64,000 nucleotides of DNA from Candidatus Babeliales bacterium (GTDB lineage: Bacteria > Babelota > Babeliae > Babelales > JANWKD01). This document shows, in pieces, positions 4,352 to 51,101 of this stretch; the stretch's first letter is position 1, and every line of letters begins with the position of its first letter. A program made the translations under genes and the position numbers. The stretch covers positions 800,001 to 864,000 of the forward strand of contig CAVRJM010000001.1 in the NCBI GenBank assembly GCA_963722075.1, in the 5' to 3' direction. Below the pieces are notes generated by a model. That model did not search any database and was not told the origin of the DNA. It worked only from the letters and a program-made list of their open reading frames with translations.

Positions 4352-4679
4352 CAGGGCAAATGCATTTAAAATATCGAATTCAAAAGAGTTCAATAAAATG
4401 CTGGATTGCTTCGATCCGTCTTCGTTAAAACTACGCCGGACAGGCGTGCTATTCTTGACGGAATCCGGCGAAGCCCTGGCGAAGTCGGACGCACTCGCAA
4501 CGACGTTTTTTGCTTTAGGCTATCGTCGTCCCGATCCAGCCTTCGCCTATAGGCTTCGGCGGGACAAGGCGTCGTGGGGACCTGGGCGTCAAAGCTTTTA
4601 GCGTAGTCGCCTCCAGGCTAAATTAATATGATTTAATTTTTTTTAGCTTAAATACTTATCATTTGATGCATTTGCCCTG
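4352..4679. mobile_element. MITE-like composite element: 14-bp terminal inverted repeats enclosing two REP hairpins with nested inserts
   Basis: CAGGGCAAATGCAT (4352-4365) and ATGCATTTGCCCTG (4666-4679); REP units 4401-4505 and 4524-4616; right arm similar to 42690-42756. Confidence 0.7.
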
Positions 4680-4815
4680 TAGGTAGGACAAAGTACACCA
4701 ATTATTTACACTGTAGCTATTTTTGATGCTTTTGAAAACTTTGTAAAATTTATACTCGAAGTCTAAAACATAATAGTATATGAAGTGATCCAGACCTTTT
4801 AAATTCTGAAATATA

Positions 4816-5493
4816 TTAATCCTCAAATGCCAAATGGATGCCGAATTTAATCCATATAACCTTCCATGCTTCATTACCAAATTTTGTAATAAAATTTTTA
4901 AATTCGTCAGTCTCATTTAATGTTTCATAAATTTTTGAAATTACATTTGTATTTTTAAAAGTACTCAATATAGAATAGAGTTCATCTGCAATTTCATCCT
5001 GATCATCTTCAGTTAACGGAGCCGCTCTTTTCATGTTTTCAACTAATATTTCTTTAATTTGTTCTACCAAGGAAGGAACAATAATCTTATCTATTAACTG
5101 TTGTACATCATTATTAGCTTTCAATTTATCTGAAAGCTTATATTGATCTTCTACTGGTAATGTTGCCATACTTTCGATTATTTGATTCCAATCGTGTTGA
5201 TATTTTTTTGCTACTTCTTCTTTACTTTTTCCTTCTGAATAAACCTTGAGCAGTTCTCTTACCAAGTTTATAGCCTTATTATAAACTGCATCAACAGCTA
5301 ATTTTTTTTGCTGCGTTGAAGGGGGAAAAGGCCCCGGTCTTTTTACTTCTGAAGGTTTTTTTGGGCCTGTCAATTGAATATGCAATTGTTCAATTTTTCC
5401 TTTTAATGATTGTAAATCAGTAAATAGCTCAGCTTCAATAAAAGAGCTCATAAGTAGTACGGTAATTAAAATTTCATACTTCATCAATTTCAC
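4816..5493 (-). CDS. Secreted helical hypothetical protein, paralog of 5778-6656
   Basis: Signal peptide, leucine heptad after it, C-terminal EFKNFITKFGNEAWKVIW. Confidence 0.75.
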   Translation of the reverse strand: MKLMKYEILITVLLMSSFIEAELFTDLQSLKGKIEQLHIQLTGPKKPSEVKRPGPFPPSTQQKKLAVDAVYNKAINLVRELLKVYSEGKSKEEVAKKYQHDWNQIIESMATLPVEDQYKLSDKLKANNDVQQLIDKIIVPSLVEQIKEILVENMKRAAPLTEDDQDEIADELYSILSTFKNTNVISKIYETLNETDEFKNFITKFGNEAWKVIWIKFGIHLAFED

Positions 5494-5628
5494 CTTTCAA
5501 AATCTTTTCAAGCAAATTATTTTTATCGTAGTTATTTTACCTTATCCCGGTCAATAAATTTAGGTTTTGTTGAGTTTTATATCTTTAATTGCTTACTAAA
5601 TACTCAATTGATGTAAATTATTAAGGGA

Positions 5629-5710
5629 CGTCGTTGCGAGCTTGTCGAAGCAATCCAGGTTTTCTTGAAAATTTTAGCCTGGATCACCACGCCTTCGGCT
5701 CGTGACGACG
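5629..5710. repeat. Inverted pair of CGTC-type REP hairpins
   Basis: cgtcgttgcgagcttgtcgaagcaatccag (5629-5658) and ctggatcaccacgccttcggctcgtgacgacg (5679-5710). Confidence 0.9.
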
Positions 5711-5777
5711 GCTTTTTCCCAATATAATCATTTTTCAAAAGCACAACGGACCCTAGACTTCTCTAATTCTATTGAGC

Positions 5778-6656
5778 TTAATATAAACTTTTAACGGTTG
5801 CCCAGATTCTTTGCGCTTGCTCTCTAAACTTATACATAAAATTCTTATACTCTCTCGTATGTTCTATCGCCCTCATTATTTCATAAACAAGCTTAGTATC
5901 ATTCTTAGGCAGCTTTCCTTTTATTATGCTAATTATATTGTTAATCTGCACTTCACTAATAGGATATGCCACCTTTTGCAGAGAATTTAAATATTTTTTC
6001 AGGTCATTATAGGAATTAATCAGCTTATCAAATTTTTGCAGTTCTTTATTGGTACTACTTTTTTCACCAAACCGTTGCGTAAATTGTTGCATATCTTCTG
6101 CTGTAAATTGCCTCATTTTTGGTTTATAAGAATTTGTTATTTGTAAAGCGTCCTGCTTACTTATAACCTTAATTTCATCAAGGGTTAATTCATGGCTCCT
6201 AAATTGCGTCACTAAGCTTTTTGCAACTTCAGCCAATTCATTTACCATAGCATCAGCTATTTTTTCAATTGGTCCTTGCTGCTCTTCAAACGCTTTGGTT
6301 ACTAACGCAACTATTTTTTTTTGATCATTTTTATTAAAATGCATTTTAACGTAATTGGAATATCGGCGGTCCATTTCTTGTAACGCCTTGCTATATGCTT
6401 CTAAATCGATTGCAGCATGTGCATATTTTTCCTTTAATTTCTCAACTTTTTTTATCATTTTTTGAGAAATCATATCAGCAACCTGTTGAACTTCTATAAC
6501 ACTTTTATTGGGCAATCCTGATTTTGATACTGATATAAGTTTAGTTTCTAAATCCCGTAATGATTCCTTAAGCGATTCTAAATGAGCGCCTATATCAGCA
6601 TGGATTGAAAAAATAGTACCTAAAATTAAAATACCGTAGAGAAAATAAGACTTCAT
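5778..6656 (-). CDS. Secreted helical hypothetical protein, paralog of 4816-5493
   Basis: Signal peptide; C-terminal EYKNFMYKFREQAQRIW. Confidence 0.75.
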   Translation of the reverse strand: MKSYFLYGILILGTIFSIHADIGAHLESLKESLRDLETKLISVSKSGLPNKSVIEVQQVADMISQKMIKKVEKLKEKYAHAAIDLEAYSKALQEMDRRYSNYVKMHFNKNDQKKIVALVTKAFEEQQGPIEKIADAMVNELAEVAKSLVTQFRSHELTLDEIKVISKQDALQITNSYKPKMRQFTAEDMQQFTQRFGEKSSTNKELQKFDKLINSYNDLKKYLNSLQKVAYPISEVQINNIISIIKGKLPKNDTKLVYEIMRAIEHTREYKNFMYKFREQAQRIWATVKSLY

Positions 6657-6715
6657 ACATATCCCCTTTATATATAATGTTATATTACCGGGATATTATC
6701 TTGTTAGTAAAGTGT

Positions 6716-7741
6716 TTAATAACGTAGCTGCTCTAAAAGAGCTGCACCTTGCGCTGCTAAGTGCGAATCATGAGAAAGATTGTATTTTTGGTAAAAGGCA
6801 TGAACTATTACTTTATAAAGATGCGTGTCATGAATGTCATCTTTTAAATATGCTGAATGGCCTGAATTTTCTAAGGGCAATAAATATAAGTCACGTAGCC
6901 CGTTTTTCTTCAAGACATCACACAATTCACGCGTACGATCGATAGGAACTAATAAATCGCGGGAAGAACCGACAAAAAGAATTGGTATGTTATAGATGTT
7001 ACACATTGCTACAAATGCTTTGGCCACCGCTGGATGTAAGGGAGAAATGCCATTATATTTATAGAGCGTTCCTAACGAAATTAAAAAACTAAAATGAGTT
7101 AATTGATCAAGCGATCCATAACATCCCTCAAGCACTAGTGCTCTTACTTTTTTACAGCTTTTTTTAACATATTCTAACGCCATAAAGTTAATAAGTGTTA
7201 CCGCGCCGCGAGAGGTGCCAAATAATACTATATCTTCGGCATCCTCGTGATAATCGCAATATCGATCATATAGACTTGAAAAACGAACAACATCAGGTAA
7301 TTGACCAAAATTCATCTTAAATATATTTAATAGATACGGATCTAAAGTTAAGCCATTTTTTGGCTCGCCTTCAATTGAAATTTGATAGCGGTTATTACTT
7401 GTTGTGAGAATTGAATGGGCCGTTTTATAGATCTGATTTAATAGAAGTGCATACGGCATCCAAGATTTTTGTACATACAATAGCAATGCTAATTTTACTA
7501 ATGAAATTTCAGCAAAATTACACCCATGAGTATATGGCCCATTGATGAGTTCATTACCATGCTGAGTAACAATCTTTTGCCCGGTTGAAGCAGTATATTC
7601 TAAGCAGTATTTGCCTGCTTGATGCTCTGAAGAAATAATCCCTGGAGCAAAAAGATAGGTATTATATGGTTGTGTCCATTGGTTGGCAATCACCCCATTA
7701 TTCATTACTAGCAATCCCAACATTATTACAATGTTTAGCAA
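6716..7741 (-). CDS. Secreted alpha/beta hydrolase
   Basis: GTSRG nucleophile elbow, DLLVP Asp and SGHS His; signal peptide. Confidence 0.75.
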   Translation of the reverse strand: MLNIVIMLGLLVMNNGVIANQWTQPYNTYLFAPGIISSEHQAGKYCLEYTASTGQKIVTQHGNELINGPYTHGCNFAEISLVKLALLLYVQKSWMPYALLLNQIYKTAHSILTTSNNRYQISIEGEPKNGLTLDPYLLNIFKMNFGQLPDVVRFSSLYDRYCDYHEDAEDIVLFGTSRGAVTLINFMALEYVKKSCKKVRALVLEGCYGSLDQLTHFSFLISLGTLYKYNGISPLHPAVAKAFVAMCNIYNIPILFVGSSRDLLVPIDRTRELCDVLKKNGLRDLYLLPLENSGHSAYLKDDIHDTHLYKVIVHAFYQKYNLSHDSHLAAQGAALLEQLRY

Positions 7742-8352
7742 TTTTTAAATTTTCCCCAGAGACGTGTATAAATTCTCTCTGCTTTTTCCTTAAGTTCCGT
7801 TTTTTTATTCCATTTGTTATTACCAGTATTCCTAAAAGTATAGAAATCTGTTACTAAATTTATCAATTGCTGATCTTTAGTAAAGTATATTGTTTGACAT
7901 TTGTTGGCATGCTCCAGCGCGGCATCTTTACTATTTTGATCCTTTTTCTTAAGATCATCTTTAATTATATTATTAATTTTTCGACGTTCTTCACTCTGTG
8001 TATTCCACCAACATTTAAAATTTTTATTTAAGTAATAACCGCCAAAGAAGGCACCAATTAAAGCTGCTGCAGACCACCCTTGGCCATTATAAATCGCTTT
8101 ACCCATTTTACCTAACCCACTTATTGGTTTGATAGTAAATGTCACTTTATCATCAAGCCATTGCATCCAACCCATTCCTTGGGTATTAGTGTTAAAAGTT
8201 AACGAACTAAGCGGTACCGTTATTTTAGCCACTACGGAAGCACTAGTTGGTGACGGTAACGAATCAAACCAGGACATCCATACTGATGCCTGTAATGATA
8301 AACCACTCGTGCAAAATAATAAAAGAAAAGAAAGAGATTTGATAAATTTCAT
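7735..8352 (-). CDS. Hypothetical exported/membrane protein
   Basis: Signal peptide plus one internal hydrophobic segment; GGAGG upstream. Confidence 0.65.
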   Translation of the reverse strand: MKFIKSLSFLLLFCTSGLSLQASVWMSWFDSLPSPTSASVVAKITVPLSSLTFNTNTQGMGWMQWLDDKVTFTIKPISGLGKMGKAIYNGQGWSAAALIGAFFGGYYLNKNFKCWWNTQSEERRKINNIIKDDLKKKDQNSKDAALEHANKCQTIYFTKDQQLINLVTDFYTFRNTGNNKWNKKTELKEKAERIYTRLWGKFKNC

Positions 8353-8587
8353 GAAATCCTCCATTTAACGCGTAAGAACGCATATTCCATATATATTTTA
8401 TATTAAAATGTCTCAAGAAATTGTCAATCAATTTTACAGGTTTAATTCTATTAATTATTTTGAAAGAGATATACTAAATATATATTGCAAAATGAATTAA
8501 TTGCTTCCCCGAGCACATAATAGTGGGGAATATGCATAGGACGCCATAAACAGTAAAAAAATAACTATTTTTTCTTATAGTATTTAT

Positions 8588-8616
8588 TTGACAAAAGTTA
8601 CAATTTGTCTTATCTT
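8588..8616 (+). promoter_or_regulatory. Sigma70-like promoter upstream of deaD
   Basis: TTGACA-17 bp-TATCTT. Confidence 0.55.
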
Positions 8617-8806
8617 AGTAGTAAATCCTATGAAGGCGCACAGACGGTATGCCCTTCGGGGTATACAGTAAAAAGCGTTAAAAAACACCTTATGGACTTC
8701 TTTCAAGCTATCCGCCGTCACAGCGTGCATTTAGTTGGCAACATTCAATCTAAAAGCCTTGCTTTTAAGCTCGAAAACCATAAGCCTATTATAGGATATA
8801 TTTCTT

Positions 8807-10510: not shown

Positions 10511-10539
10511 TTTGGTTACAATCTAAATGGGAGGATGAT

Positions 10540-11091
10540 ATGAGAAAGTTATCTTTATTATTATTGATGGGAATCTTTGCCAGTAATGTTACTGCGATGC
10601 AAACTCATCGGAATAAATCATGGGTACATTCCATACTGTCCTTGCCTATTTTTTATCCTGCTGCTTTTTCATTAGCAGGCATTGGGTACTGTTTATATAA
10701 GCCGGAAAGCGTTAAAGCGAGTTGGCATTATATAAAGGAAATTCCTTTTCCTATTACATGTGCTTTATTAACAGCTACAAGCTGCTTATTAATTGATCGA
10801 TTACTCCATAAAAAAAATTATGAAGTAGATATAAAAAGAATTAATGCTGAGTTTCAAAATCATAAAGATAAAAGAAAAATTGTCAGCAGACGAACAGAAG
10901 TAATTATTACTGAATTCGCAAATCAACTGGCACGCATGGAATCGCGGTTAAATAGACTTGATAAAACGGTGAGCGAACTTGACCAACTAAATAATCTCTA
11001 TAAAGATACTGCAAAAGCACACCCAGGACTCTTTGAAAACAATATGCAGCCAGGCTGGCAAGAAGCATTACAGACAATCACTCAAAATTAG
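10540..11091 (+). CDS. Secreted/membrane hypothetical protein (signal + MQ, two hydrophobic segments, coiled coil)
   Basis: MRKLSLLLLMGIFASNVTA-MQ; GGAGG RBS. Confidence 0.7.
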   Translation: MRKLSLLLLMGIFASNVTAMQTHRNKSWVHSILSLPIFYPAAFSLAGIGYCLYKPESVKASWHYIKEIPFPITCALLTATSCLLIDRLLHKKNYEVDIKRINAEFQNHKDKRKIVSRRTEVIITEFANQLARMESRLNRLDKTVSELDQLNNLYKDTAKAHPGLFENNMQPGWQEALQTITQN

Positions 11092-11115
11092 TAATAAGAT
11101 ATTTGATTCACTAAA

Positions 11116-11196
11116 CTGGATCACCACGTCGCTTCGCTCCTCGTGACGACGTGTGTCGAGAAAAAGCTGTCGTTGCGAGCTTGCGAAGCAATCCAG
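11116..11196. repeat. Pair of CGTC-type REP hairpins between convergent genes
   Basis: ctggatcaccacgtcgcttcgctcctcgtgacgacg (11116-11151) and gtcgttgcgagcttgcgaagcaatccag (11169-11196). Confidence 0.9.
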
Positions 11197-11254
11197 TAAT
11201 TAAAATATACTTACAAATATTATAGCCACTCACAATAACGATGGTAGTCACATA

Positions 11255-12520
11255 TCATACCTTTACCACCAATAATGAATCCCAATTAGTAGTATAAGCG
11301 CGCGAACGGTACACCCCTTCTTTTGTACCACGTTCATAACAACCTTGCGATGCGGGGCGCACCATATGATTGCCCCACGTACTATTTAATTCATCCATTA
11401 CCTGCATCACCCGAGAAAATCGTTTATTCTTTTCATTATCAGCAAACAAATCTTGTTGTACCTCAGCGGTGTCAATTAAACCTGAGAGTATCACTCCTGC
11501 CCGTTTATAATTATAGCCCTGCACATAGATCGCTTTTAAAAGTTGATCCATATAGTGCAATAATAAGGGTGTAGAATCAGTTGCGTAGGGAAGCTTTATT
11601 TCTCGATAAGGAGCGTAATACGTTTGCTCATCAAAGCGACCAGTAGCAATAAAAATAGTTACATAATAAGCACATGATTGCTGTTCACGTAATTTTTGTG
11701 CTGCACGCCCTACAAAAAGCGCTAACAATTGCTGCAGCAATTGTTTACTAGTCACGGGCGTTTTAAAGCTTCTGGTGCAGGCTATTGATTGTTTAGGTGG
11801 CGCATATTCTTGTAAATCAATACAAGGAATACCGCGCAATTCCCATACCGTTTTCAAAAATAAGGTATTATTTATTAATGATTTAATACGTTTATCATCA
11901 GCACGCGTAAGATCCAACGCTGTTTTAAAAGCGTATCGTTCTAAAGTACGCGCATAGCGATATCCAATCCCCCACACATCGTTAATGGGAACTTTAAGCA
12001 AGTCATCTGGATTAGCTAATTGTGTACTATCAAAAATGCCATTGTACTGTTGGTTTTTTTTTGCTTGTTTATTAGCGAGCTTAGCACGCGTTTTAGTAGT
12101 AGCAATACCAATTGAAACGGGAATGCCTACCCATTGGTAAATACGTTCTTTCAACATAACGGCAACTTCGTATGCGTTGGCACACACATCAAATTCTATA
12201 AATGCTTCATCAATGGAATAGATCTCAGTACTATATCCCAACCCTTTTATGACACTCATAATGCGATCAGAAATATCAGCATATAAGGTAAAATTAGCAG
12301 AGCAAGCAACACCATTTACTCGTTTAATGAGCGGTTCATACTGAAAATAGGGTGCTCCCATAGGAATACCAACTGCTTTTGCTTCTTGAGAACGCGCTAC
12401 TACACAGCCATCGTTATTTGAAAGCACCACAACCGGGCGCTTTTTGAGCACGGGATTAAAAAGCCGCTCGCACGATACATAAAAATTATTACAGTCAACA
12501 AGCGCAATCAGTTTATTCAT
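11255..12520 (-). CDS. umuC: Y-family DNA polymerase V subunit UmuC
   Basis: ALVDCNNFYVSCE, VVLSNNDGCVVARS, YSIDEAF, VWGIG, SRAYTTNW. Confidence 0.95.
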   Translation of the reverse strand: MNKLIALVDCNNFYVSCERLFNPVLKKRPVVVLSNNDGCVVARSQEAKAVGIPMGAPYFQYEPLIKRVNGVACSANFTLYADISDRIMSVIKGLGYSTEIYSIDEAFIEFDVCANAYEVAVMLKERIYQWVGIPVSIGIATTKTRAKLANKQAKKNQQYNGIFDSTQLANPDDLLKVPINDVWGIGYRYARTLERYAFKTALDLTRADDKRIKSLINNTLFLKTVWELRGIPCIDLQEYAPPKQSIACTRSFKTPVTSKQLLQQLLALFVGRAAQKLREQQSCAYYVTIFIATGRFDEQTYYAPYREIKLPYATDSTPLLLHYMDQLLKAIYVQGYNYKRAGVILSGLIDTAEVQQDLFADNEKNKRFSRVMQVMDELNSTWGNHMVRPASQGCYERGTKEGVYRSRAYTTNWDSLLVVKV

Positions 12521-12522
12521 AG

Positions 12523-13062
12523 TTAATTTAATAAGCATCCTTCACTAGGATTTTTATCATAATAAATTGCTTTTTCTGTACTCACCTTTTGCAACTCGTT
12601 CACTTGTTCCACCTTGTTCCTCACCATGGTTAATAAACCCAAACAATATATATGGTTAACCCAATTTTCTTCGGCCATTTTTTTAGCAGAAATATAACCG
12701 GCAAATTCATCACCAATGGTACACATTTTTTTCATAAATGCTTCAATATTATATACGCCTATTTTGCCCTCAGTATTAGGGGTTATTTGTATCCACGGAT
12801 ATTCTTTTTTGCCAGTAGAAATGCTAAGTACTGTTTCAAACTCTATTATTTGCCGATTAACAAATTTTTTTTCTTCTTCATTTAGTTGAGATGACTCAAC
12901 TATCTTTTTATTATTATCAATCACATCAGAAACAATTTGATCTATTTGCGGTACTAATTTCTCTATAAATGGATTAGAGGAAGTTATTCGTTTTTCTTCT
13001 TGCTGCATAGCAACACATGAAATATGAATACATATAAGTGCTATATAAATACGTAGCTTCAT
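12523..13062 (-). CDS. Secreted protein (signal + MQ) ending in CaaX-like CLLN; paralog of 13094-13534
   Basis: MKLRIYIALICIHISCVA-MQQEE...SEGCLLN*. Confidence 0.75.
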   Translation of the reverse strand: MKLRIYIALICIHISCVAMQQEEKRITSSNPFIEKLVPQIDQIVSDVIDNNKKIVESSQLNEEEKKFVNRQIIEFETVLSISTGKKEYPWIQITPNTEGKIGVYNIEAFMKKMCTIGDEFAGYISAKKMAEENWVNHIYCLGLLTMVRNKVEQVNELQKVSTEKAIYYDKNPSEGCLLN

Positions 13063-13093
13063 CGGGGTCTATTCCTTTTTCTAACCGTTAAAA

Positions 13094-13534: not shown

Positions 13535-13554
13535 GCATTACCCTTTTAAAAATA

Positions 13555-14007: not shown

Positions 14008-14104
14008 ATGAAATATAATAACAAATATTCACATCTCATCAATCTTTAATAAATTGCTTTTACTTACTTGTTTATTAGTATAATTTTTACCAAAGGAGAA
14101 TCTT

Positions 14105-14521: not shown

Positions 14522-14596
14522 ATTTAATTAAACCCTGTTATTCAACTTGAAATCTTCGAATGCAAAAAAAGTCTTGCTTAATTTATGTAAGTTTAC

Positions 14597-14839
14597 AAAA
14601 GCCGTCGTTGCGAGTTTACGAAGCAATCCAGGCTCAGTTATAAGTTTTTCGTTATACATAAATTTATTAATGTTCACAACCCAATTCCAATACAGATTTA
14701 TATAAATCTGATAAAATCATTAACTTTCTTATTCATCTATTGTTGAGCGATAAAACTTGTAACTGTTGTTTCTATAACCGTATATAATTTCATTTATTTT
14801 AACCTGGATTGCTTCGGCAAGCTCGCAACGACGGCTTTT
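14597..14839. repeat. Inverted REP pair about 170 bp apart (REPIN/MITE-like)
   Basis: aaaagccgtcgttgcgag...gaagcaatccagg at 14597-14632 and its near reverse complement at 14803-14839, with an AT-rich spacer. Confidence 0.85.
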
Positions 14840-14893
14840 TTAATGCATAATTTTTTAGGCTTTGAATATTAATTCATCGCGCTTTATAAAAAT

Positions 14894-17335
<2,442 letters not shown>

Positions 17336-37572: not shown

Positions 37573-37665
37573 GTCATCCAGAGCGAAGCGTCGGGATCCA
37601 GTAAATAAATAAGAAGTCTTTATTTTTATAACTGGATTCTTACCGCCTAAAGGCCTCAGAATGAC
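37573..37665. repeat. Inverted REP pair with conserved AT-rich spacer (empty version of 50942-51101)
   Basis: gtcatccagag...cgggatccag, spacer taaataaataagaagtctttatttttataa, ctggattctt...ctcagaatgac. Confidence 0.85.
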
Positions 37666-37818: not shown

Positions 37819-37984
37819 ATGGATGGCCATCCGTTTTCGTTAATCCAGCTATCGCTAAAAAAGCTATGGCGGAGTAAACAACTACGCCGGGAAGAGCGCA
37901 TGGCCGCCTTAGCCCTTGGGCGGCGGCGGATTGCCATGACCATTTTGTTTTCGATTGCCATCCCGAGTTTACGTGGGGATCCAT
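37819..37984. repeat. REP pair; first unit carries level-2 and level-3 nested inserts
   Basis: atggatggcc[atccgttttcgttaa[36 bp]aactacgccgg...ggcggcggat]tgccatgac, then gccatcccgagtttacgtggggatccat. Confidence 0.8.
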
Positions 37985-38643: not shown

Positions 38644-40731
38644 ATGAATCCGAGTAAAATGGGCATTATTAGTGCTTTAACTCTTGTTCCGGTATTATTA
38701 TTATGCACGTATTTAAAATCACCTAAAAAAGAAGATTTTATTATGATAAAAACCGTTACTTCACTTAATGAATTAAAAAAATTATTCCCGACCACTCCTA
38801 GCCAGCTGGTTTCATTAGCACAACATGCAATTAAAGAAGCGCATCAGAATGTAGATACTATTATGGCAATCCCTTTGGAACAGCGCACCTTTGATAATAC
38901 CATAGCTGCTTATGATAAAACTGTAACTATTTTCAGCCAAGCGCGCGCATTAATAGAATTATTTACCTTAGTACATCCTGATGAACAAATGCGAACTATC
39001 GGTCAAGAACAATTAATCAGTTTACAAAATGAAGCGGTCGACCTTTTTGCTCAAAACAAAAATTTGTATACCATGCTTAATGATTATAACATCCATAATG
39101 CTCCGCAAGAAAATTTAAGCAAAAAACAAAAATACTTCTTAGAAGAAACATTAAAAGATTATGAACGATATGGGTTAAATCGTGATAACCAAACTCGCAA
39201 TAAAATAGCAGCACTCCGCAAAGAGCTCTCGGAATTTGAATTGGCTTTTGATAAAAATATCTATAGCGATAATCGTACCGTTGCCGTCCATAAAGATGAA
39301 TTAACTGATTTAGATGATGATTTTATTGCGCAATTAAAACAAAATGAAGAAGGATTATACCTTCTAGGCGTTGATTATCCCACCTATCATAAGGTTATGG
39401 ATTTCTGTTCTAATAACCACACCCGTAAAAAATTATACGATGCTTTTAATAAACGTGCATACCCAGCAAATTGTTCAGTGCTTTCTACGGTAATTGAAAA
39501 ACGCCATAAATTGGCTGAGCTTCTTGGGTTTAATAGCTTTGCCCATTTAGCGTTACAAGACCAAATGGTTAAAAATCCTGAACGCGTTGAAGAATTTCTT
39601 ACTAATCTCGTTGAAAAAACAGTTGCAAAAGAACAACTAGAGTTCGAGCGGTTAATTAAAAATCTGCCCGCATCAGTTCGACTTTCTCCCGAAGGCAAAT
39701 TGTATCCATGGGATCGATCATATGTAGTGCAACACTATAAAAAAAATAATTTTAACATCGACGAAAATAAGATCAGCCATTATTTTCCAATGGATAATAC
39801 TATTAAAGAATTGCTTGCCATTTATGAGCAGTTTCTTGATCTTGAATTTAAAGAAGAAGCAATCGATAGCCTATGGCATCCTGAAGTAAAATTAATCACG
39901 GTGTACCAAAATAAACAATTACAAGGGTACTTATTATTAGATCTTCATCCACGTGCACATAAATATAATCATGCATGTCATACCACTATTATTCCGGCAC
40001 TTAAAACCAACGAAGGAATCCGTCCTGCTGTTTCAGTAGTGATAGCAAACTTCCCGCACGCTATTGCAGGTCAACCGGCATTATTAAAACGAGATGACGT
40101 AAATACCTTCTTCCATGAATTTGGCCATGCCCTTCATGCATTATTGGGCGCAACTAAGCTTGGATCTTTTTCTGGAACTCGGGTAAAAACAGATTTTGTT
40201 GAGATGCCTTCTCAAATGCTTGAAGAATGGTTATGGGACCCTGCTATCTTAAAACAAATCAGCAAACATTATAAAACGGGTGAGCAGTTACCTGATGAAA
40301 CAATTAATACGTTAATTGAACTAAAAAATCTTACCAGCGCTGGCGACATACAACGCCAATTAGTATTTGCCTTAGTTTCACTTAATTATTTTAAAGAAGG
40401 TGCGCAAAAAGATATTTATGCCATCTTCAAGAAATTTTATGAACAAATTAGAAAGAATGATCTGTTTTATGATGATTGCCATTTCTATACGGCATTCGGT
40501 CATTTAATGGGCTACGATGCAAAATATTATAGTTATTTATGGTCAAAAGTATTTGCCTTAGATCTTTTTGAACATATTAAATCATTCGGGCTTTTAAATA
40601 CTGATATTGGTACTCGTTATAAAAATACTATTCTTGCAAAAGGTGGCAGCAAAGATCCTGATGAACTCCTGTATGATTTCTTAGGACGCGCACCTACCAC
40701 TGATGCTTTTATGAGAAGCCTTGGATTGTGA
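38644..40731 (+). CDS. M3 family metallopeptidase (thimet oligopeptidase/PrlC-like)
   Basis: FHEFGHALH, DFVEMPSQMLEEW, GYDAKYYSYLWS. Confidence 0.93.
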   Translation: MNPSKMGIISALTLVPVLLLCTYLKSPKKEDFIMIKTVTSLNELKKLFPTTPSQLVSLAQHAIKEAHQNVDTIMAIPLEQRTFDNTIAAYDKTVTIFSQARALIELFTLVHPDEQMRTIGQEQLISLQNEAVDLFAQNKNLYTMLNDYNIHNAPQENLSKKQKYFLEETLKDYERYGLNRDNQTRNKIAALRKELSEFELAFDKNIYSDNRTVAVHKDELTDLDDDFIAQLKQNEEGLYLLGVDYPTYHKVMDFCSNNHTRKKLYDAFNKRAYPANCSVLSTVIEKRHKLAELLGFNSFAHLALQDQMVKNPERVEEFLTNLVEKTVAKEQLEFERLIKNLPASVRLSPEGKLYPWDRSYVVQHYKKNNFNIDENKISHYFPMDNTIKELLAIYEQFLDLEFKEEAIDSLWHPEVKLITVYQNKQLQGYLLLDLHPRAHKYNHACHTTIIPALKTNEGIRPAVSVVIANFPHAIAGQPALLKRDDVNTFFHEFGHALHALLGATKLGSFSGTRVKTDFVEMPSQMLEEWLWDPAILKQISKHYKTGEQLPDETINTLIELKNLTSAGDIQRQLVFALVSLNYFKEGAQKDIYAIFKKFYEQIRKNDLFYDDCHFYTAFGHLMGYDAKYYSYLWSKVFALDLFEHIKSFGLLNTDIGTRYKNTILAKGGSKDPDELLYDFLGRAPTTDAFMRSLGL

Positions 40732-40737
40732 CGGATA

Positions 40738-40871
40738 CGTCATCACGATCCGCCGCCGCCAAGGCTATGGCGGGATTTCGTCAACTTAACAAGCCTGTCC
40801 CGTCGAAGTTATTTACTCCGCCGTAGTTTTTTTAACCAATGCTGGATTAACGAAGACGGATGGTGATCCAG
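40738..40871. repeat. REP hairpin with level-2 and level-3 nested inserts (reverse orientation)
   Basis: cgtcatcacga[...gaagtt[atttactccgcc...gctgga]ttaacgaagacgga]tggtgatccag. Confidence 0.85.
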
Positions 40872-40890
40872 TCATAAAATGACATAAGTT

Positions 40891-40930
40891 AAAAGGGGCA
40901 TTATGAGAAAAACTCATAATGCCCCTTTTT
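40891..40930. terminator. Bidirectional intrinsic terminator
   Basis: Perfect 17-bp inverted repeat aaaaggggcattatgag-aaaaa-ctcataatgcccctttt between convergent genes. Confidence 0.9.
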
Positions 40931-40934
40931 CATT

Positions 40935-41339
40935 TTATAATGCTTGTGGTCCTGATGCCTGAGGGGCACCTGCTGTTGGAGCGCCTTCAGGGAGTATGCC
41001 CAATCTATGTTGTAAACGCAACACCATTTCTGCTAATTGATTAAGTACTCTACCTTGTACTTGCGCAATTTCAAGTAACGTATTGATTTCTTGTACACTA
41101 CCAATAGGCACTTGATTAATTCGTTGCAATTCTCGTTCCATTGCTCCTAATTCAACGCCATTAGTTGCTGCTCCACCTGCCTGTTTTTGAAGCATGTATA
41201 CTTTTTCTGTTAATGTTTTAAGCGCTTGCCCTTGCGAAGTAATATCATCACGTATCGCTTGCAATCTGCTCGCATCGGCAGCATACACCGATGATACAGT
41301 AGCAATCATTAAAACTAGTATATATTTTATTAACTTCAT
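40935..41339 (-). CDS. Secreted coiled-coil protein
   Basis: Signal ending VYA; two heptad segments. Confidence 0.75.
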   Translation of the reverse strand: MKLIKYILVLMIATVSSVYAADASRLQAIRDDITSQGQALKTLTEKVYMLQKQAGGAATNGVELGAMERELQRINQVPIGSVQEINTLLEIAQVQGRVLNQLAEMVLRLQHRLGILPEGAPTAGAPQASGPQAL

Positions 41340-41352
41340 AATTCTTCTCCTT

Positions 41353-42450
41353 TTAAGCAGCTGCCGCTGGAATTACTACCGGAACTGCTGGAGCTGCCGG
41401 AACTGCTGAAACAGCAGATAATCTATCTTCAATTAACTTAACTTGATCCGCAAGTGAAATAATTGCATCAGCACTACGCTTTTCCCCTTGCTCAAGTTCA
41501 TCAAGACGCGTATCGTATTCTGCCGTTTTAATATACACTGGCTGTTCTACATACGTAGGAACTTCTTCATATATCGGTTCAGGAGTTGCTAACGGCGCTA
41601 AGTTTTCAAAGAACCATGGATCATATACACCTAAAGCTGTTGATATTCCCCACCATGGACCAACACCTAAGCCCCAATACCACCACGGACTCAAGAATGG
41701 ATCAAATAATCCCCACCAGCCAAAGAAGCCAAATCCGCCGCCCCACCAGAAGCTATTAAAATTATTAAATCGCCCAGCGTGGCCTGCCTCATGTCCTATA
41801 TGGTTTAACCCATTAGCATGCGCTAAGCTTCCTTTAGTACCGCTGGCACCAAGCATTTCTCTCCCAGCACCGGCTTTAGCGGCAGTTGCGCCTCTTGCTG
41901 CGCCACCGCCTATACCTTTCCCCGCTCCAGCCAATCCGGCACCTGAAATTCCTCTACCTGGGCCACTTATGCCTTTACCAGCCGTAGGACCGCTTATTCC
42001 TTTACCAGTTGCTCCTGATAATTGCCCATGACCAATTTGTCCAATTCTACTACGCTGCGCTGACGTCATGCCATGCGTACCAGAAATACCTCTACCAGCC
42101 CCACCAGCTACACCTCTACCTGCAAATCCTGTTGCGCCACGGCCAGCAGCATATCCAGGCCCGCTTGAATAGGCACGACCCGCACCGCCTCGTGATACCA
42201 TTACAGTACGTCCTCCTCCAGCATAGCCACCACGGTATCCACCGCCGCGATAACCACCGTATCCACCGCCACGGTATCCGCCACCACCAAATCCACCTCC
42301 ACGGTATCCACCGCCGCCGCCTCTAAAGCCGCCGCCGCCACCATGGCCACCACCGCCATGACCGCCGCCGCCACCGCGGCTAAAAACAGTATCGGAATTG
42401 ATAAGGGCTAGAGAAAGAAGGCCTGCCCATAATAATCTTTTTTTATTCAT
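41353..42450 (-). CDS. Secreted Gly/Arg-rich low-complexity protein
   Basis: YRGGG and G(K/R)GISG repeats, Trp/Gly-rich segment, C-terminal coiled coil. Confidence 0.8.
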   Translation of the reverse strand: MNKKRLLWAGLLSLALINSDTVFSRGGGGGHGGGGHGGGGGFRGGGGGYRGGGFGGGGYRGGGYGGYRGGGYRGGYAGGGRTVMVSRGGAGRAYSSGPGYAAGRGATGFAGRGVAGGAGRGISGTHGMTSAQRSRIGQIGHGQLSGATGKGISGPTAGKGISGPGRGISGAGLAGAGKGIGGGAARGATAAKAGAGREMLGASGTKGSLAHANGLNHIGHEAGHAGRFNNFNSFWWGGGFGFFGWWGLFDPFLSPWWYWGLGVGPWWGISTALGVYDPWFFENLAPLATPEPIYEEVPTYVEQPVYIKTAEYDTRLDELEQGEKRSADAIISLADQVKLIEDRLSAVSAVPAAPAVPVVIPAAAA

Positions 42451-42689
42451 TACTATCTCCACTTTTTATACAATAAACAAGAAAGATTTTTCCTTTATAA
42501 TTATACTAAATGAATAGCAAGGTTTTCAATATTTTTATAATTTATTCATATTGAAAATTTATGGATTATCACTAGAATAATAGTGTAAATAGAGGGTGAT
42601 CTTGCTATGATTAAGGGGATTGGTTTGTTAAGTAGTAAAGGCTGCAGTAAATCTCAAAGCATTAAAAAAGCCGTTGTCGACAATTTGTA

Positions 42690-42829
42690 CAGGGCAAACG
42701 CATCAAATAATAAGTATTTAAGCCAAAAATTAAAAGGATATTAACTTTGGCCTGGATCCCCACGCCTTTGGCTCGGGACGACGATGGTTGAAAAAAAGAA
42801 CGTCGTTGCGAGCTTGCGAAGCAATCCAG
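42690..42829. repeat. REP pair with MITE-like arm homologous to 4612-4679
   Basis: cagggcaaacgcatcaaataataagtatttaagc..., ctggatccccacgcctttggctcgggacgacg (42752-42783), cgtcgttgcgagcttgcgaagcaatccag (42801-42829). Confidence 0.85.
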
Positions 42830-42926
42830 ATTAAAAATGAAATTGTATACAATTTGTACAGGTTCTATTGCATATATTTGAAATCGAATGGTAAAAAATT
42901 CATTCAATCAAGCTTAATTACTATCA

Positions 42927-46500: not shown

Positions 46501-47152
46501 TGTGGCAGCGATTTTTTTAGGGTTTAATTGGGCAAACTTAGGGAACTTATTATTTGTTATCGGTGTAGTAATAGGTAGTATTGGGTATATCGTTAAAGAA
46601 CCAATTGCTGACTTTATTTCTTATTTTATCATTTTAGTACAACGGCCACTTAAAATTGGTGATCTCATTAAAATTAATGATACGTTAGGCTTTGTACGTC
46701 ATATCACCCCGCGTTCAGTAATCTTAAGAACAAAGAATAGTTATACCGTTATCATGCCCAATGCTATGATTATTAATCAGCCAGTTATTAACTGGAACTA
46801 TTCTCGTGGTTTTATTGCATTTGACGATATTTCATTCACTATCCCCTACAGCATTGATCCGCTTAGAGTAAAACAGATCATCGCTGAAGTATTAGATGCT
46901 AATACTGATATTCTCAAAAGCCCTAAACCAATTATTCGGCTTGAGAATTTTGGAGAAAATGGGTATGAATTTATGCTTCGTGGATTTTTAAGTAGCAATA
47001 AAACACTGGAAATTTGGGATATTGCCAGCGAAATACGTTTTGCATTGGTACAAGCGCTGCAAAAACATAATATTAGCATTGCCGTACCAACGCGCGTGAT
47101 ATTCACTAAGCCACATAAAGCATTAGAAGCAGAACCAATTAAAGAGTTGTGA
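43535..47152 (+). CDS. Large MscS-family mechanosensitive channel (MscK-like)
   Basis: Long periplasmic coiled coil, many TM segments, IADFISYFIILVQRPLKIGDLI, IMPNA. Confidence 0.9.
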   Translation: MNAYKNIITFFLLLIASFYCNAGLLDYFTTSAPSENQQAKIRLPLGINERKNQLEHLKLELKELHATAKDFAHTIQLNLDQTSNEIKETKAKLAQASAKDVSFLNKVLSILNETYQTLFNLQFYRKELVSIIEQHTALLENFLKDPDFKSLHLKEQSFYTFDDLQEFNKKVAIQETKINHLTEQKNDGIIALENAKRKLITISKDYEDKKKKQAEFNVKTQTPADGQASAEFDFKELGRITDLEKNLALFEKQLTELKIQELTKKNAFLETSIALENDKLKIIKSNVAHIKDALRIEPKDLQKTKERLETDKKESLALRDTYYSTIKELSSQRENALKELEQLKKRYNVTDITAIGATDWSVVPHTSQEWVRLCELGLKDNQSAMLESKIDTLRATIDLEISKFKRKEIDVEIFNTWYKITRRQFKSNEEILSTLKHYQSLLAELTREENSIKDKRNSLTNLINIRNKNLVNLKTLIDELKKQQSTIFKTAEGRFNTCLSKLNQTEKIIEEQLENNNQLLKYDSDLITLISNTIQGLHSIINELETKSIWQRSEYAISLNGINNIGSDLKYFTKDIQKLGSHFFSNIYVTIRSLLNQIIYHPFNFIIFILKVLLIILCYRFLRKRLYKFIAYIRNKKTESTSIFVFIKTLEVVTSFIAQYFLRIYTWMVLFALIYFDYISDSFLKVLFYLGSIIFFCYITYRFIQYVIKFNKDNNFIFFSPPFQKRFVFVFGLFAYVNIILLLFREGYIAATYHASEFPIILLALYSVLIRTLIIFSIGKEEILNLIPNRGAGWKAVAEFIDRYYYLLLSIIIVLMIISDPYIGGYGNLVSFVLWGTIGTILLIKVLLFIQDYIKVKSSVLFFKTDEETVKERFMYAKTWYGLFVVALFIIFVFLGILLSFKIWGKTFTLKDFSSILNYGLFSTGLDITTGQHIWLTPFKILVILGFICAGFLLAFMINRFVLHRIFQLLPVDIGIQNTVSSLTRYLIIVAAIFLGFNWANLGNLLFVIGVVIGSIGYIVKEPIADFISYFIILVQRPLKIGDLIKINDTLGFVRHITPRSVILRTKNSYTVIMPNAMIINQPVINWNYSRGFIAFDDISFTIPYSIDPLRVKQIIAEVLDANTDILKSPKPIIRLENFGENGYEFMLRGFLSSNKTLEIWDIASEIRFALVQALQKHNISIAVPTRVIFTKPHKALEAEPIKEL

Positions 47153-47155
47153 GAG

Positions 47156-47374
47156 TTATTTTTGTACTTTGGAAATTAAGCGGCGAATATATTCAAAACC
47201 GCCGATTTTTACAAAGCCATATACAATTAATCCTACGGCACCAAGAATAACTAACGTATTAAGCCAGCGTTCAAAAAAATTAAAAGCATACATTAAAATA
47301 AGCACGCCAACCACCATGTATACGATAGCTTTTTGGTCTTCAGTTAAATGAAATTTTTTTATCATAACAATCAT
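47156..47374 (-). CDS. Small two-TM membrane protein
   Basis: Two hydrophobic helices. Confidence 0.6.
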   Translation of the reverse strand: MIVMIKKFHLTEDQKAIVYMVVGVLILMYAFNFFERWLNTLVILGAVGLIVYGFVKIGGFEYIRRLISKVQK

Positions 47375-47494
47375 CCTTTTTTTTTATTCATCTGGACAAA
47401 AATATACAGATTCTTTTATTAGCTTTGCAATATTCTTTTATTTTTTTTAATTAACAAGAACCTGCCCTGCAGGTGAAGTCATTTTGAATTCAAT

Positions 47495-48043
47495 CTAATT
47501 ATTAGATAAAAAGCCATGAATAGGCCATGGATTTGAAAAATCTAGATGGTAATCAACTAATGGCTTATGATGCACCAATAACTGTATCCATTGAATTTTT
47601 ACCCCATTATCGCGAATTGTTTTAAATAATCCCTCAGTCCACAGTAATTTTTCATAGGTGCTTTGCTTTTTATCAAAGGGATTGCGGTCAAACGAGATAA
47701 AAATTTCTTGCCCACACGCGGATAAAACAACTGCTTGAATTGAAACTTTTTTCTCCATTACTTTTTCTTCATCAAGAACAATAAGCCAACTAGAAATAAG
47801 TTGTTTAACATTTTCTGCCGTATCAGAAGACCATAATAATTCATCTTCTTCACTATTCCAATGATCATGCTTCCAAAAGATTTTTTTTATGGTTTTTTTA
47901 ATAATACCCTGATTATTTTCTCGAGTATTTACTTGCTTTTTAGCTGGTAAACAAATAATAACCCATTGTTGGTTATACGAAAAATATATAAAGGCAATCA
48001 TACTTGAAAGAATGCATAATAAAATATAATGCCATCTGATCAT
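47495..48043 (-). CDS. Hypothetical membrane-anchored protein (possibly GerMN-like)
   Basis: N-terminal TM; overlaps the amidase stop codon. Confidence 0.6.
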   Translation of the reverse strand: MIRWHYILLCILSSMIAFIYFSYNQQWVIICLPAKKQVNTRENNQGIIKKTIKKIFWKHDHWNSEEDELLWSSDTAENVKQLISSWLIVLDEEKVMEKKVSIQAVVLSACGQEIFISFDRNPFDKKQSTYEKLLWTEGLFKTIRDNGVKIQWIQLLVHHKPLVDYHLDFSNPWPIHGFLSNN

Positions 48044-48711
48044 ATATTTTTAAGATAATTAAGTATGTTAATAATGCTATTTTTTAGCGGTATTAGATAA
48101 TGCTTATAATGATCTTTTTTGGGTAAGCTCAATTCAAGAGCAACCGCCGGGCTCGAAATCCCAATTAACGGTTTAAAGGGAATTCCTAAAATACCTTTTA
48201 CTTCCAGTAGTGGATTATATTGTTTTTCATCAAGCCCTGTTTTTATGATTTCGGCACATTTTTTAGCAGTTTTCACTTGCTGTATATGCGCTTTATCATA
48301 ATATTGAAGATGAAGATTGTTTGTTTTTTGCTGCCATTCATCAGTGCTATTAGATAAAAAATAAAATAAATGGCATTGAGATTTTATATCCGATTCTTGA
48401 TAACAATGAATACTTATATAAAAATCAACTTCTAATCGATTAGCAAAATGAGCATTTTGCAATGGTTCTAGAAATTCACCGGGAAAGCGCGTTAAAATAA
48501 CACGGACATTAAGCTGTTCTTGCTCAATAAGCTGCTTCAATTTTTCTGCAACTTGTAAGGTAACGCCACGTTCAAAAGAATCCTCAATAATTCTACCGGC
48601 ATGCTTTGCATCGCCAGCAGGATCAATCATAACGGTAAGTATGTTATTATGGGCTTTTATGCATACACTATTTAGTAAAAATAGAAGGACTATTAATTTA
48701 ATTAACGGCAT
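48040..48711 (-). CDS. N-acetylmuramoyl-L-alanine amidase (Amidase_3), divergent
   Basis: VMIDPAG, ERGVTLQVA, VILTR, FYISIH, PAVALEL; start MPLIKL at 48711. Confidence 0.8.
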   Translation of the reverse strand: MPLIKLIVLLFLLNSVCIKAHNNILTVMIDPAGDAKHAGRIIEDSFERGVTLQVAEKLKQLIEQEQLNVRVILTRFPGEFLEPLQNAHFANRLEVDFYISIHCYQESDIKSQCHLFYFLSNSTDEWQQKTNNLHLQYYDKAHIQQVKTAKKCAEIIKTGLDEKQYNPLLEVKGILGIPFKPLIGISSPAVALELSLPKKDHYKHYLIPLKNSIINILNYLKNI

Positions 48712-50885
48712 TGTAAATCCGAAGTTAAGTATTCTTTTAAGAAGGTAATTCGCTTGACTGATTTGTTGTTTTTTATTCCTAATGCAACTGCTTTTGGTTG
48801 CCCAATAAAAATACATAATTTTTTTGCGCGCGTTATAGCGGTATATAATAGATTCCTTTGTAATAACATAAAATGTTGCATGAATAAGGGGACAATAACA
48901 CACGCATATTCTGATCCTTGGCTTTTATGAATCGATAATGCATATGCTAACACCAGCTCATTTAATTCATCAAATTCATATTCTACTATTCTATCCAAAA
49001 AAGTGATGACCATGGTACGATCTTCCAGATTGATATCTTCGATAAAGCCCGTATCGCCATTAAACACTGCTTTATCATAATTATTACGAATCTGCATAAC
49101 TTTATCCCCTACCTTAAATAAGGTACCTCCCCATTGTATCGATTTTTGTGCTATTGCTCCATTTAATAATGTTTGCAAATCTTGATTTAATTTTATGGTT
49201 CCTGCAATTCCCCGATTCATAGGAACTAAAACAGCAGTATCATCAATTTTTATCGAGAAATTTTTTAAGGTATGATTAAATATTTTATCCAGATGATTAA
49301 TGACCAATGAAGGATCTTCTTCTTTTATAAAAAAATAATCTTTACGGCTCCCTTCCATAAAGCCTACGGGAAATTCACCGCTATTGATACGATGGGCATT
49401 TAATATAATCAAACTATCTTGCGCTTGCCGAAAAATATGAGTAAGTCGAATAACCGGAATTATGCCGCTTGCCATCATATCATTAAGAAAATTACCAGGA
49501 CCTACCGAAGGAAGCTGATCACAATCGCCAATAAAAATAAGATGCGTATGCTGTGGAATTGCCTTTAAAAGTGCATATCCCAAAAATGCATCAATCATTG
49601 ATGATTCATCGATAATTAAAAAATCTAAAGAAAGCGCATTTTGTTCATTATGCACAAAATTCATAGTTCCGGGGTCAAATTCCAAAAGGCGATGTATCGT
49701 AACGGCCTGTTTACCGGTACCTTCTATAATTCGTTTTGCGGCTCTGCCGGTGGGTGCAGCCAATTTAAAAGAGCAACCGTTTCCTGCTAAAATAGAAATT
49801 AATTGTTTAATTAAGGTTGTCTTACCCGTACCGGGGCCACCCGTAATAATCGTAATTTTATGTTGCAAACAGTTCATGATACCATGAATCTGATCTTCAT
49901 TAAGCGCAATAGAGTTGCCGGAATTCATACACAGCTGCTTATATAAAGCAGTTAAATCAAATTGATGCTTTGATGACGCTGCCAACAGCTTTTTTATTTT
50001 TTGTGCAATGCCTTTTTCAATGTAATAATATTGGCTAACGGTGAGATAATGCTGCTGATCGATTGAAATTAATTTTATTTTTTCCTGTTGATATAGTTCC
50101 TGTAAAGCATTTCTCAGTAAGGGTAATGCATGTTGCTGATCTAATTGCAATAGCTGTATAGTATCTTGTTTTAATTGATCTACTAAACAGTATAAATGTC
50201 CATTAGTTGATGCCTCGGTAATAACAAACAGTAACGCAGATTTCAATCGCTTAATAGAATCTACCGCTATTCCTAATTTAAGTGCAATTTGATCGGCGGT
50301 TTTAAAACCAATACCCCAAATATCTTCTGATAATCGATAGGGATTTTCGGTAACCAGAGCGATCGATGCTTTTCCATATTTTTTATATATTTTTAAGGCA
50401 TGGCTAGTACCAACCCCTTTTTCTTGTAAAAAAACCATAAGATGAGAAATTTCTTTTTGATCTTGCCAGGCTACAATAATTTGTTCAACTCGCCGTTGCC
50501 CAATGCCATCAACCTCTTGTAAACGCGCTGGCTCTTTATCAATAATTTCAAGAACCTGGGTTCCAAAATGATCAACAAGCTTTTGTGCATATACTTTACC
50601 GACCCCTTTAATAAGGCCTGACCCTAAATATTTTTTGAGACCCTCAATAGTTTCTGGCATCAAAGTACTACTATGTTCGATAGCAAACTGCCTTCCAAAG
50701 GAGGCATGCATCACCCATGCTCCTTTAAGGCAGATCCGTTGCCCTGGCTGAATACCGGCAACATAGCCTTTAGCTACTATTGAATTTTTATAGGCAATGG
50801 TTAAAGAAATAATTGCAAAGCCATTTTCTTCATTTTTGAAAAGAATTTTATCAACCGTACCAACTATTTCTTCTACGTTATTCAT
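48702..50885 (-). CDS. recD2: ATP-dependent RecD-like DNA helicase
   Basis: YLGSGLIKGVG, ENPYRL, GGPGTGKT, APTGRAAKR, SIHKSQGSE, LYTAITRA. Confidence 0.95.
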   Translation of the reverse strand: MNNVEEIVGTVDKILFKNEENGFAIISLTIAYKNSIVAKGYVAGIQPGQRICLKGAWVMHASFGRQFAIEHSSTLMPETIEGLKKYLGSGLIKGVGKVYAQKLVDHFGTQVLEIIDKEPARLQEVDGIGQRRVEQIIVAWQDQKEISHLMVFLQEKGVGTSHALKIYKKYGKASIALVTENPYRLSEDIWGIGFKTADQIALKLGIAVDSIKRLKSALLFVITEASTNGHLYCLVDQLKQDTIQLLQLDQQHALPLLRNALQELYQQEKIKLISIDQQHYLTVSQYYYIEKGIAQKIKKLLAASSKHQFDLTALYKQLCMNSGNSIALNEDQIHGIMNCLQHKITIITGGPGTGKTTLIKQLISILAGNGCSFKLAAPTGRAAKRIIEGTGKQAVTIHRLLEFDPGTMNFVHNEQNALSLDFLIIDESSMIDAFLGYALLKAIPQHTHLIFIGDCDQLPSVGPGNFLNDMMASGIIPVIRLTHIFRQAQDSLIILNAHRINSGEFPVGFMEGSRKDYFFIKEEDPSLVINHLDKIFNHTLKNFSIKIDDTAVLVPMNRGIAGTIKLNQDLQTLLNGAIAQKSIQWGGTLFKVGDKVMQIRNNYDKAVFNGDTGFIEDINLEDRTMVITFLDRIVEYEFDELNELVLAYALSIHKSQGSEYACVIVPLFMQHFMLLQRNLLYTAITRAKKLCIFIGQPKAVALGIKNNKSVKRITFLKEYLTSDLQCR

Positions 50886-50941
50886 GCACACTCAATAATT
50901 CGATTTTATTTTCGACGATTTTTACTTCTTAGGTCAAGCCC

Positions 50942-51101
50942 GTCATCCCGAGCTTGCGTGGGGATCCAGTAGATAAATAAAAAGTCTTTATATTTTATAA
51001 CTGGATTCTTATCCATCTTCGTTAAAACTTCGCCGGACAAGCGATCTATTTATGACGTAATCCGGCGTAGCCGTGGCGAAGTCGGACGATCTCAGAATGA
51101 C
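50942..51101. repeat. REP pair like 37573-37665 but with a 77-bp level-2 insert
   Basis: gtcatcccgagcttgcgtggggatccag, near-identical spacer, ctggattctt[51011-51087]gatctcagaatgac. Confidence 0.88.

Follow-up and report, generated by a model that had tools for sequence, protein, structure and literature searches.

Nested hairpin repeats of a Candidatus Babeliales genome and a tRNA-adjacent GIY-YIG gene as their candidate mobiliser

How do small palindromic repeats come to lie one inside another, and what moves them? The question is raised by a 64,000-nt stretch of a Candidatus Babeliales bacterium genome (1.47 Mb, 34.7% GC), hereafter the window (C1:800001-864000, window position 1 being C1:800001), in which repetitive extragenic palindromes (REPs) of the CGTC type, here called level 1, carry other hairpins within them; every one of the nested repeats in the window is intergenic. 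A first, sequence-only reading had described three levels: the REP, a 77-bp double-hairpin cassette inside it (level 2) and a 36-bp hairpin inside the cassette (level 3). Its coordinates for the nested elements all proved correct when the sequence was re-read; the three levels, for their part, reduce to two families: one profile detects both halves of level 2, level 3 and a related unit near 4535. We call this second family X, a family of 30-36-nt hairpins embracing levels 2 and 3. What we observe is the structure of the composites, their junctions, the scatter of level 3 among its hosts, and the genomic links of X with one clade of small GIY-YIG nucleases and of the REPs with another, the Ssn-type clade. 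The explanation that we favour, with slightly more than even confidence, is that a dedicated, tRNA-adjacent GIY-YIG nuclease of about 80 amino acids (aa) copies X into folded single-stranded DNA (ssDNA) targets, and that the filled REPs are then copied whole.

Structure and junctions of the composites

A scan of the genome for GTC-stem...stem-ATCC gave 275 REP candidates, 226 of them short and empty, with 13 stem types; 11 empty copies lie in the window (Table 1). The REP has a 5-bp outer stem, an internal loop and a variable inner stem. GTC itself was the search seed, and C or T precedes it in 218 of the 226 short REPs; the 3-nt tail fits CCA in 222, a figure that is partly built into the search. 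Identical empty loops recur on several stem types. The different REP subtypes that host level 2 had been taken as a sign of independent insertions; this argument is weakened, because empty loops cross stem types as well and the cassette variants track the loop type of their host. Whole composites have therefore also been copied.

Regarding the X family, the profile was built from seven window units and has 94 matches in the genome, and a strict X motif occurs 111 times, whereas five local shuffles gave 13-27 matches. The layout of an X unit is TCC, outer stem, 3-nt internal loop, GYY, loop, RRC, TWY, outer stem and a tail of 4-6 nt. Its inner stem covaries, with Watson-Crick fractions of 0.83 and 0.82 versus 0.52 and 0.51 after shuffling (140 of 147 units parsed). 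By peeling the units out of their hosts we obtained 160 units in 95 junction groups: 16 level-3 units (type f), 21 of type e, 10 at the ends of tRNA or transfer-messenger RNA (tmRNA) genes, 13 of a smaller unit, W, and a remainder of 100, for which the labels given by the script are partly mixed. Several additional, decayed units went undetected.

Peeling restored a REP in 55 of the 95 junction groups when judged by script, compared with 8 of 150 random non-coding positions, and left exact empty REPs, for example, at C1:200064 and C1:945742. Judged by eye, 70 of the 95 sites are in REPs, 10 at the CCA of tRNA or tmRNA genes, 6 in tRNA-downstream leaders, 3 in another X and 2 at the foot of another hairpin, so that 91 of the 95 have a hairpin or tRNA-end host and only 4 have no evident host. 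The units, then, do not lie mostly outside hairpins. The proposal that they target hairpin loops stands insofar as they occur almost only in other hairpins, although many of them sit at internal-loop or stem-foot positions rather than in terminal loops. No REP was found inserted within an X unit among the units detected.

The REP sites can be sorted into precise classes. On the forward strand X stands after GA, and on the reverse strand it stands in the 3' internal loop (type c); the other sites are the loop edge ahead of GCGTG, the position following GCG (type e) and GGA^TCC. Target duplication is absent at the REP GA^GC, type-c and level-3 junctions, and a 3-nt repeat is found only at tRNA CCA and REP GGA^TCC. 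We also considered whether X might be a miniature inverted-repeat transposable element and rejected this identity, the combination of terminal inverted repeats with target-site duplication not being found.

The 77-bp cassette is an X of type c followed, tail to tail, by an X of type e. Its copies at 4414-4490 and 51011-51087 differ in exactly 10 of 77 positions, in a gapless alignment, as had been counted by hand. Two further places, at 37829 and 40748, had been read as diverged copies of it; their left unit (type c) is indeed the same, but the right unit is a different one, and of these four places only 4414 and 51011 have the cassette. As 20 of the 21 type-e units are paired with a type-c partner, this pair has been propagated, either as one unit or within composites that were copied. 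The other X doubles enclose the 3' arm of the host REP itself and are therefore two insertions. The related unit near 4535 is an X in a REP, at GA^GC, as supposed; an X-like unit in the same REP (4581-4611) had been overlooked, and its paralog at C1:1258334 holds a level-3 unit.

Outside the REPs, X was also seen at the 3' foot of a perfect hairpin (CCACCA-TGC-TGGTGG) at C1:200249 and C1:270012, and a composite of about 110 nt, with two tandem X units in a shared non-REP flank, has three copies (C1:209774, 270335 and 1365567).

Table 1. Filled and empty REPs of the window with the X units that they hold (window positions)
Feature	Position	Strand	Basis or remark
CGTC REP host, GTTGC:GCAAT stem, two X units inside	4402-4504	-	REP scan; stem type has 83 empty copies in genome
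X type c, left half of level 2, unfilled loop CGTTAAAACT	4415-4444	+	unit peeling
X type e, right half of level 2, tail to tail with type c	4458-4489	-	inner end uncertain by 1-2 nt
CGTC REP host, GTCCC stem, two X insertions	4524-4616	+	sequence; junction pattern match at C1:804525
X type a at REP GA^GC	4535-4568	+	sequence, peeling, junction pattern
X-like unit at REP GGA^TCC	4581-4611	-	core C1:804588-804606 by motif; ends by eye
two empty REPs	5630-5657 and 5680-5709	+ and -	REP scan
two empty REPs	11117-11150 and 11169-11195	- and +	REP scan
two empty REPs	14604-14630 and 14805-14832	+ and -	REP scan
empty REP	37633-37665	-	REP scan
CGTC REP host, ATGGC:GCCAT stem	37820-37941	-	sequence; peeled site
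X type c, filled by level 3	37830-37894	+	peeling
level 3 = X type f, 36 nt, tail GTAAAC, at host loop edge A^AACT	37844-37879	+	peeling
X at REP GA^ site, TCCGCCGCCGCC variant, not type e of 77-bp cassette	37899-37930	-	peeling
CGTC REP host, ATCAC:GTGAT stem	40739-40870	+	REP scan
X at REP GA^ site	40749-40780	+	peeling
X type c, filled by level 3	40794-40860	-	peeling
level 3 = X type f	40811-40846	-	peeling; spanned by run X1 contig record 3
two empty REPs	42753-42782 and 42802-42828	- and +	REP scan
empty REP, partner of filled REP at 51002	50942-50968	+	REP scan
CGTC REP host, ATTCT:AGAAT stem	51002-51101	-	REP scan; spanned by run X1 contig record 8
X type c, unfilled	51012-51041	+	peeling
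X type e	51056-51086	-	peeling
empty REP	58365-58398	+	REP scan

An assembly artefact is unlikely, because contigs of the public run X1, possibly but not certainly the source sample, span two filled sites nearly letter for letter: 40630-41142 (record 3, 1 differing letter) and 50980-51598 (record 8, 0 differing letters, 1 gap). The runs listed as containing the sequence are 7 public DNA runs and no RNA run; their contigs, with patchy coverage, contained no form but the filled one and no joint that bypasses an insert. Rfam gave no match for the window at the gathering level, nor for 7 loci at E<=1.

As for the neighbouring genes, a UmuC-like IMS gene (427 aa) and an adjoining open reading frame of 179 aa, together at 11255-13062, stand beside a REP pair. 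For a 285-aa open reading frame at 15058-15915 the similarity to a class I tRNA synthetase is confined to the C-terminal part of the latter, and the frame may be split or truncated; a GC-rich 15-nt periodic repeat at 42214-42378 is consistent with a glycine-rich coding tract of the 369-aa open reading frame at 41353-42462.

Units in X loops and at tRNA ends

Level 3 has 16 copies in the genome, each directly 5' of the A[AG]CT of a host X. Its site is the one proposed earlier: deleting 37844-37879 or 40811-40846 leaves CGTTAA^AACT, which is the unfilled loop of the other two window copies. The GTAAA[CT]-like tail is retained with AACT and AGCT targets alike, and therefore it is not a target duplication; three left contexts occur. 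We also found 22 unfilled X loops (23 rows, one of them discarded as not X). On a tree of 34 X hosts with level 3 removed, 13 of them filled, the filled state changes 10 times, versus a mean of 10.7 when shuffled, and at least 4 changes are forced by starred branches. The empty window copy at 4415 is sister of the filled C1:704081 with 100% support, and monophyly of the filled hosts is rejected (p-AU of the approximately unbiased test, 6.6e-57). Since the filled hosts are scattered among empty ones, a single ancestral composite, from which all nested copies might have been duplicated, is rejected as well. Level 3 has thus been gained or lost repeatedly; the tree cannot tell gain from loss, nor insertion from conversion.

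The loop-edge site used by level 3 is also occupied by W, a 21-nt unit found in 13 places (C1:200122, 270026, 587176, 749923, 1113163 and 8 more). Level 3 can follow W in tandem, and the stacks reach four units.

At the ends of the 37 tRNA/tmRNA genes, X follows the CCA in 12 cases and a related hairpin, Z, in 16, usually with a second CCA after the hairpin. Z is a 27-nt hairpin that starts with CCAG and has its core in either orientation; it stands at tRNA genes, for example, at C1:283793, 328278, 749246 and 868259, and 2 further copies (871928 and 881823) are not at tRNA genes. A non-tRNA host ending in CTATGTG(A/G)CA^CCA holds Z or X (C1:871800-871960 and C1:881700-881850). This host, which has no Rfam match, occurs also in the relative G003, upstream of a GIY gene (L059), and is possibly the end of an unknown RNA gene. 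X units near tRNA-Ser and tRNA-Thr have another unit, of 25-30 nt, inserted in their loops (regions C1:190690, 749720 and 972915).

Two clades of small GIY-YIG genes

An HUH/RAYT-like enzyme or another nuclease encoded elsewhere had been suggested as the mobiliser. The former is unsupported, as we found no RAYT in the genome and its one Y1 gene has ends unlike X or the REPs, whereas the latter is supported, the candidate being a GIY-YIG enzyme, a type of gene that the first reading had suggested looking for. The Y1 transposase is IS200-like, a single gene at C1:156495-156854 with unique end hairpins. Small ssnA-like GIY-YIG genes (P0002, of 96 aa, in the region of C1:1398471, and like loci) have REPs on both sides in 3 of 3 cases in the genome, and X tracks a second small GIY-YIG clade. 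The latter is represented by four other genes: one intact (P0001, C1:371244, 79 aa), one open frame without ATG and two broken. Three of the four lie behind tRNA genes with X or Z at the CCA end; no tRNA accompanies the C4 remnant.

P0001 shares 33% identity over 55 aa with the Ssn-type protein, and the X-type proteins are without the C-terminal LIE..NP.W.DL segment. In the protein tree the X-type and the REP-flanked Ssn-type proteins stand on opposite sides of one branch (SH-aLRT 90; 44 vs 31 rows). The consensus of the X-type group retains the Tyr, Arg, His and Glu positions, and site-specific cleavage of ssDNA by this clade is predicted. NCBIfam gave no family over the cut-off, the PDB gave weak matches to UPF0213 BH0048 and SLX1, and an Atlas search with P0002 gave generic GIY-YIG clusters only.

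The same division is seen in other genomes of the phylum. We compared 29 loci of each type, taking the best-scoring locus per genome and not a random draw. At the X-type loci a tRNA or tmRNA gene lies upstream within 400 nt in 22 cases, the strict X motif within 300 nt in 18, and a REP in 1; at the Ssn-type loci the respective figures are 0, 3 and 14. Among 251 phylum genomes the X pattern is present in 114 of the 157 with an X-type gene versus 13 of the 94 without. Outside the phylum, X-type homologs occur in several phyla, often with a tRNA and X-like leaders, though not at all 16 loci. None of the 160 X units matches the published SRM pattern of the Ssn nucleases on either strand, nor does any of the 226 REPs match its degenerate form, also with GTCG allowed; the REPs are therefore treated here as working like SRMs and not as members.

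A looser junction pattern, run on metagenomes, gave 66 matches (52 distinct), of which 8 close a REP stem around X, against a chance expectation of about 1-2 by a rough, uncontrolled estimate. Several of these 8 composites have two X units tail to tail and the insertion at GA^GC, in unrelated contigs of 42-67% GC. In the other 58 of the 66 the script found no REP arm to close the stem, and chance adjacency probably explains many of them.

Mechanism, alternatives and meaning

According to the mechanism that we propose, the nuclease would bind the reverse strand of X through its TGTC tag, its stem and its purine-rich (GWA/GAA) internal loops, a strand that appears to mirror the REP strand bound by SsnA. 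A nick 2-3 nt 5' of the TGTC tag would set the tail junction of X, comparable to the cut of SsnA, which the main text of Chenal et al. (2025, PMC11893778) places 3 nt 5' of CGTC and describes as tolerating loop extensions. Joining at the unpaired/paired junction of another hairpin would be left to host repair or to template switching. A filled REP would keep its CGTC tag and CCA tail and would be copied whole by the REP's own machinery, and X would thereby ride on the REP as a hyperparasite.

Several points weigh against this mechanism. To our knowledge, GIY-YIG enzymes have no known strand-transfer step, and we infer both cleavage and transposition by the X-type clade. The mobility of SsnA itself is presented as a hypothesis only (PMC11893778, main text). 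The genome-level link between X and the gene is in part trivial, since the leader of the gene itself contains X, and related genomes in the comparison of the 251 are not independent. The composites are mosaic, so the host-tree model is imperfect. Exact junction patterns were found in 1 of the 251 phylum genomes, which makes the composites lineage-specific, and in 0 viral contigs; there was no orthologous filled/empty pair, the nearest genome having 67% DNA identity and the close strains being filled. The X tail junction lies 2-3 nt from the tag in 92 of 110 units, a figure partly built into the peel patterns. The outer-stem covariation test was mis-registered and is uninformative, and nearest-neighbour folding of the composites against shuffles gave z values of 0.3 to -2.0, at best marginal. 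Finally, X sub-type is tightly tied to site class, which fits a few founding insertions followed by composite copying.

This last point leads to the main alternative, that a few rare, enzyme-independent template switches seeded X in the REPs, that composite copying and gene conversion spread it, and that the GIY link holds only at tRNA ends. We regard it as unlikely, even though about 10 nt of flanking loop, enough for conversion, are common to 13 of the 16 level-3 sites, empty REP loops move among stem types, and the GC clusters of yeast mitochondria merge and show co-conversion in the examples drawn from Wu and Hao (2015, PMC4478555). Against it stand at least 7 distinct and precise classes of site within this one genome, the presence of level 3 after W units and in a GCTAAA loop, where the shared left flank is lacking, the use of the same REP sites in unrelated contigs, and the fact that the X pairs inspected were all tail to tail. 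It is improbable, too, that the REP-flanked Ssn-type nuclease also mobilises X and hence accounts for X in REPs. X near 3 of 29 Ssn-type loci compared with 18 of 29 of the X-type clade, its presence in 77 of the 110 Ssn-negative genomes with an X-type gene, and an SsnA cut that falls outside the hairpin and not within (PMC11893778, main text) outweigh the three ssnA-like loci of the genome, the roughly 70 of 95 X sites in REPs and, among genomes without an X-type gene, an X pattern in 6 of 17 with Ssn versus 7 of 77 without.

Movement of X by an HUH transposase (RAYT or IS200/IS605 TnpA) is very improbable and largely refuted. Such enzymes act on ssDNA hairpins without target duplication, as set out in the sections used of Bertels and Rainey (2011, PMC3116915), the genome has one Y1_Tnp gene and the e + c cassette resembles the REPIN doublet; however, the end hairpins of this lone gene occur once each in the genome, neither X nor REP stands beside it, and X has no GTAG tag. 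The least credible alternative is a spread via RNA, with tRNA trailers reverse-transcribed into nicked targets. X or Z follows the CCA in 28 of the 37 tRNA/tmRNA genes and is therefore probably transcribed, but the genome has no RVT_1 match and the inserts lie on both strands of the REPs. The IS110 family likewise has 0 matches in the genome.

Among known small repeats, the cyanobacterial small dispersed repeats of Elhai et al. 2008 are said to be 21-27-nt mobile units with specific targets. The Ssn/SRM system (PMC11893778, main text) is similar in that a small single-domain GIY-YIG gene is tied to a 30-nt hairpin with a tag and a CCA-like tail, and in that level-1 REPs bracket the three ssnA-like genes, as in NTS-ssnA-NTS. 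X and its gene, in contrast, form a separate group in which the genes lie behind tRNA and X enters other hairpins; the word tRNA is absent from that main text, and X and the REPs miss the published SRM pattern. With the CGTC REPs (Di Nocera et al. 2013, PMC3733652) level 1 shares the CGTC/TGTC tag, the AT-led stem and the CCA tail. An 8-9 bp stem and a 4-5 nt loop are also among the criteria for that class; the REPs of this genome show the 5-bp outer stem, internal loop and variable inner stem given above. The paper reports that a few REP families sit within other palindromes and that small hairpins occur in dimer spacers; it assigns the CGTC REPs no mobiliser and, in the portion used here, describes no hairpin family inside them.

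The REPIN/RAYT system, in the sections used of PMC3116915, resembles the e + c pair as a non-autonomous inverted doublet with spacer whose enzyme acts in trans, although RAYT is lacking in this genome and single X units insert cleanly alone; a doublet as the recurring unit holds for type e + c and not for types a, f and t. Yeast mitochondrial GC clusters such as GC42 are likewise tiny GC-rich merging palindromes in AT-rich spacers for which endonuclease help has been proposed, but they are organellar, duplicate an AG target and have no dedicated adjacent nuclease in the examples drawn from PMC4478555. Level 1 and its nuclease type are thus already known. X, its nuclease clade and the nesting are apparently undescribed; we found no paper on them, in a search that covered few subscription papers and, of the Ssn paper, the main text.

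How tiny palindromic repeats spread without a transposase was open for the CGTC REPs in 2013 and was a conjecture for Ssn in 2025. This genome offers filled and empty junctions, defined to the base, in several kinds of target, an intact candidate enzyme and a predicted strand and cut position, so that the question can be tested directly. Tentatively, and with more doubt than confidence, one may go further and think of a widespread mobile class, namely 21-36-nt hairpins moved by an 80-aa GIY-YIG ssDNA nuclease that would choose its targets by their shape, be they the acceptor ends of tRNAs, the internal loops of REPs or the loops of the hairpins themselves. The result would be a stack of hyperparasites on REPs of the Ssn type, built with no need for a transposase, recombinase or reverse transcriptase. 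If the proposed mechanism is true, there would be a second family of hairpin-directed ssDNA nucleases, with its gene in 157 of the 251 phylum genomes and in other phyla, and it would account for the hairpins behind most tRNA genes, which could otherwise be mistaken for terminators.

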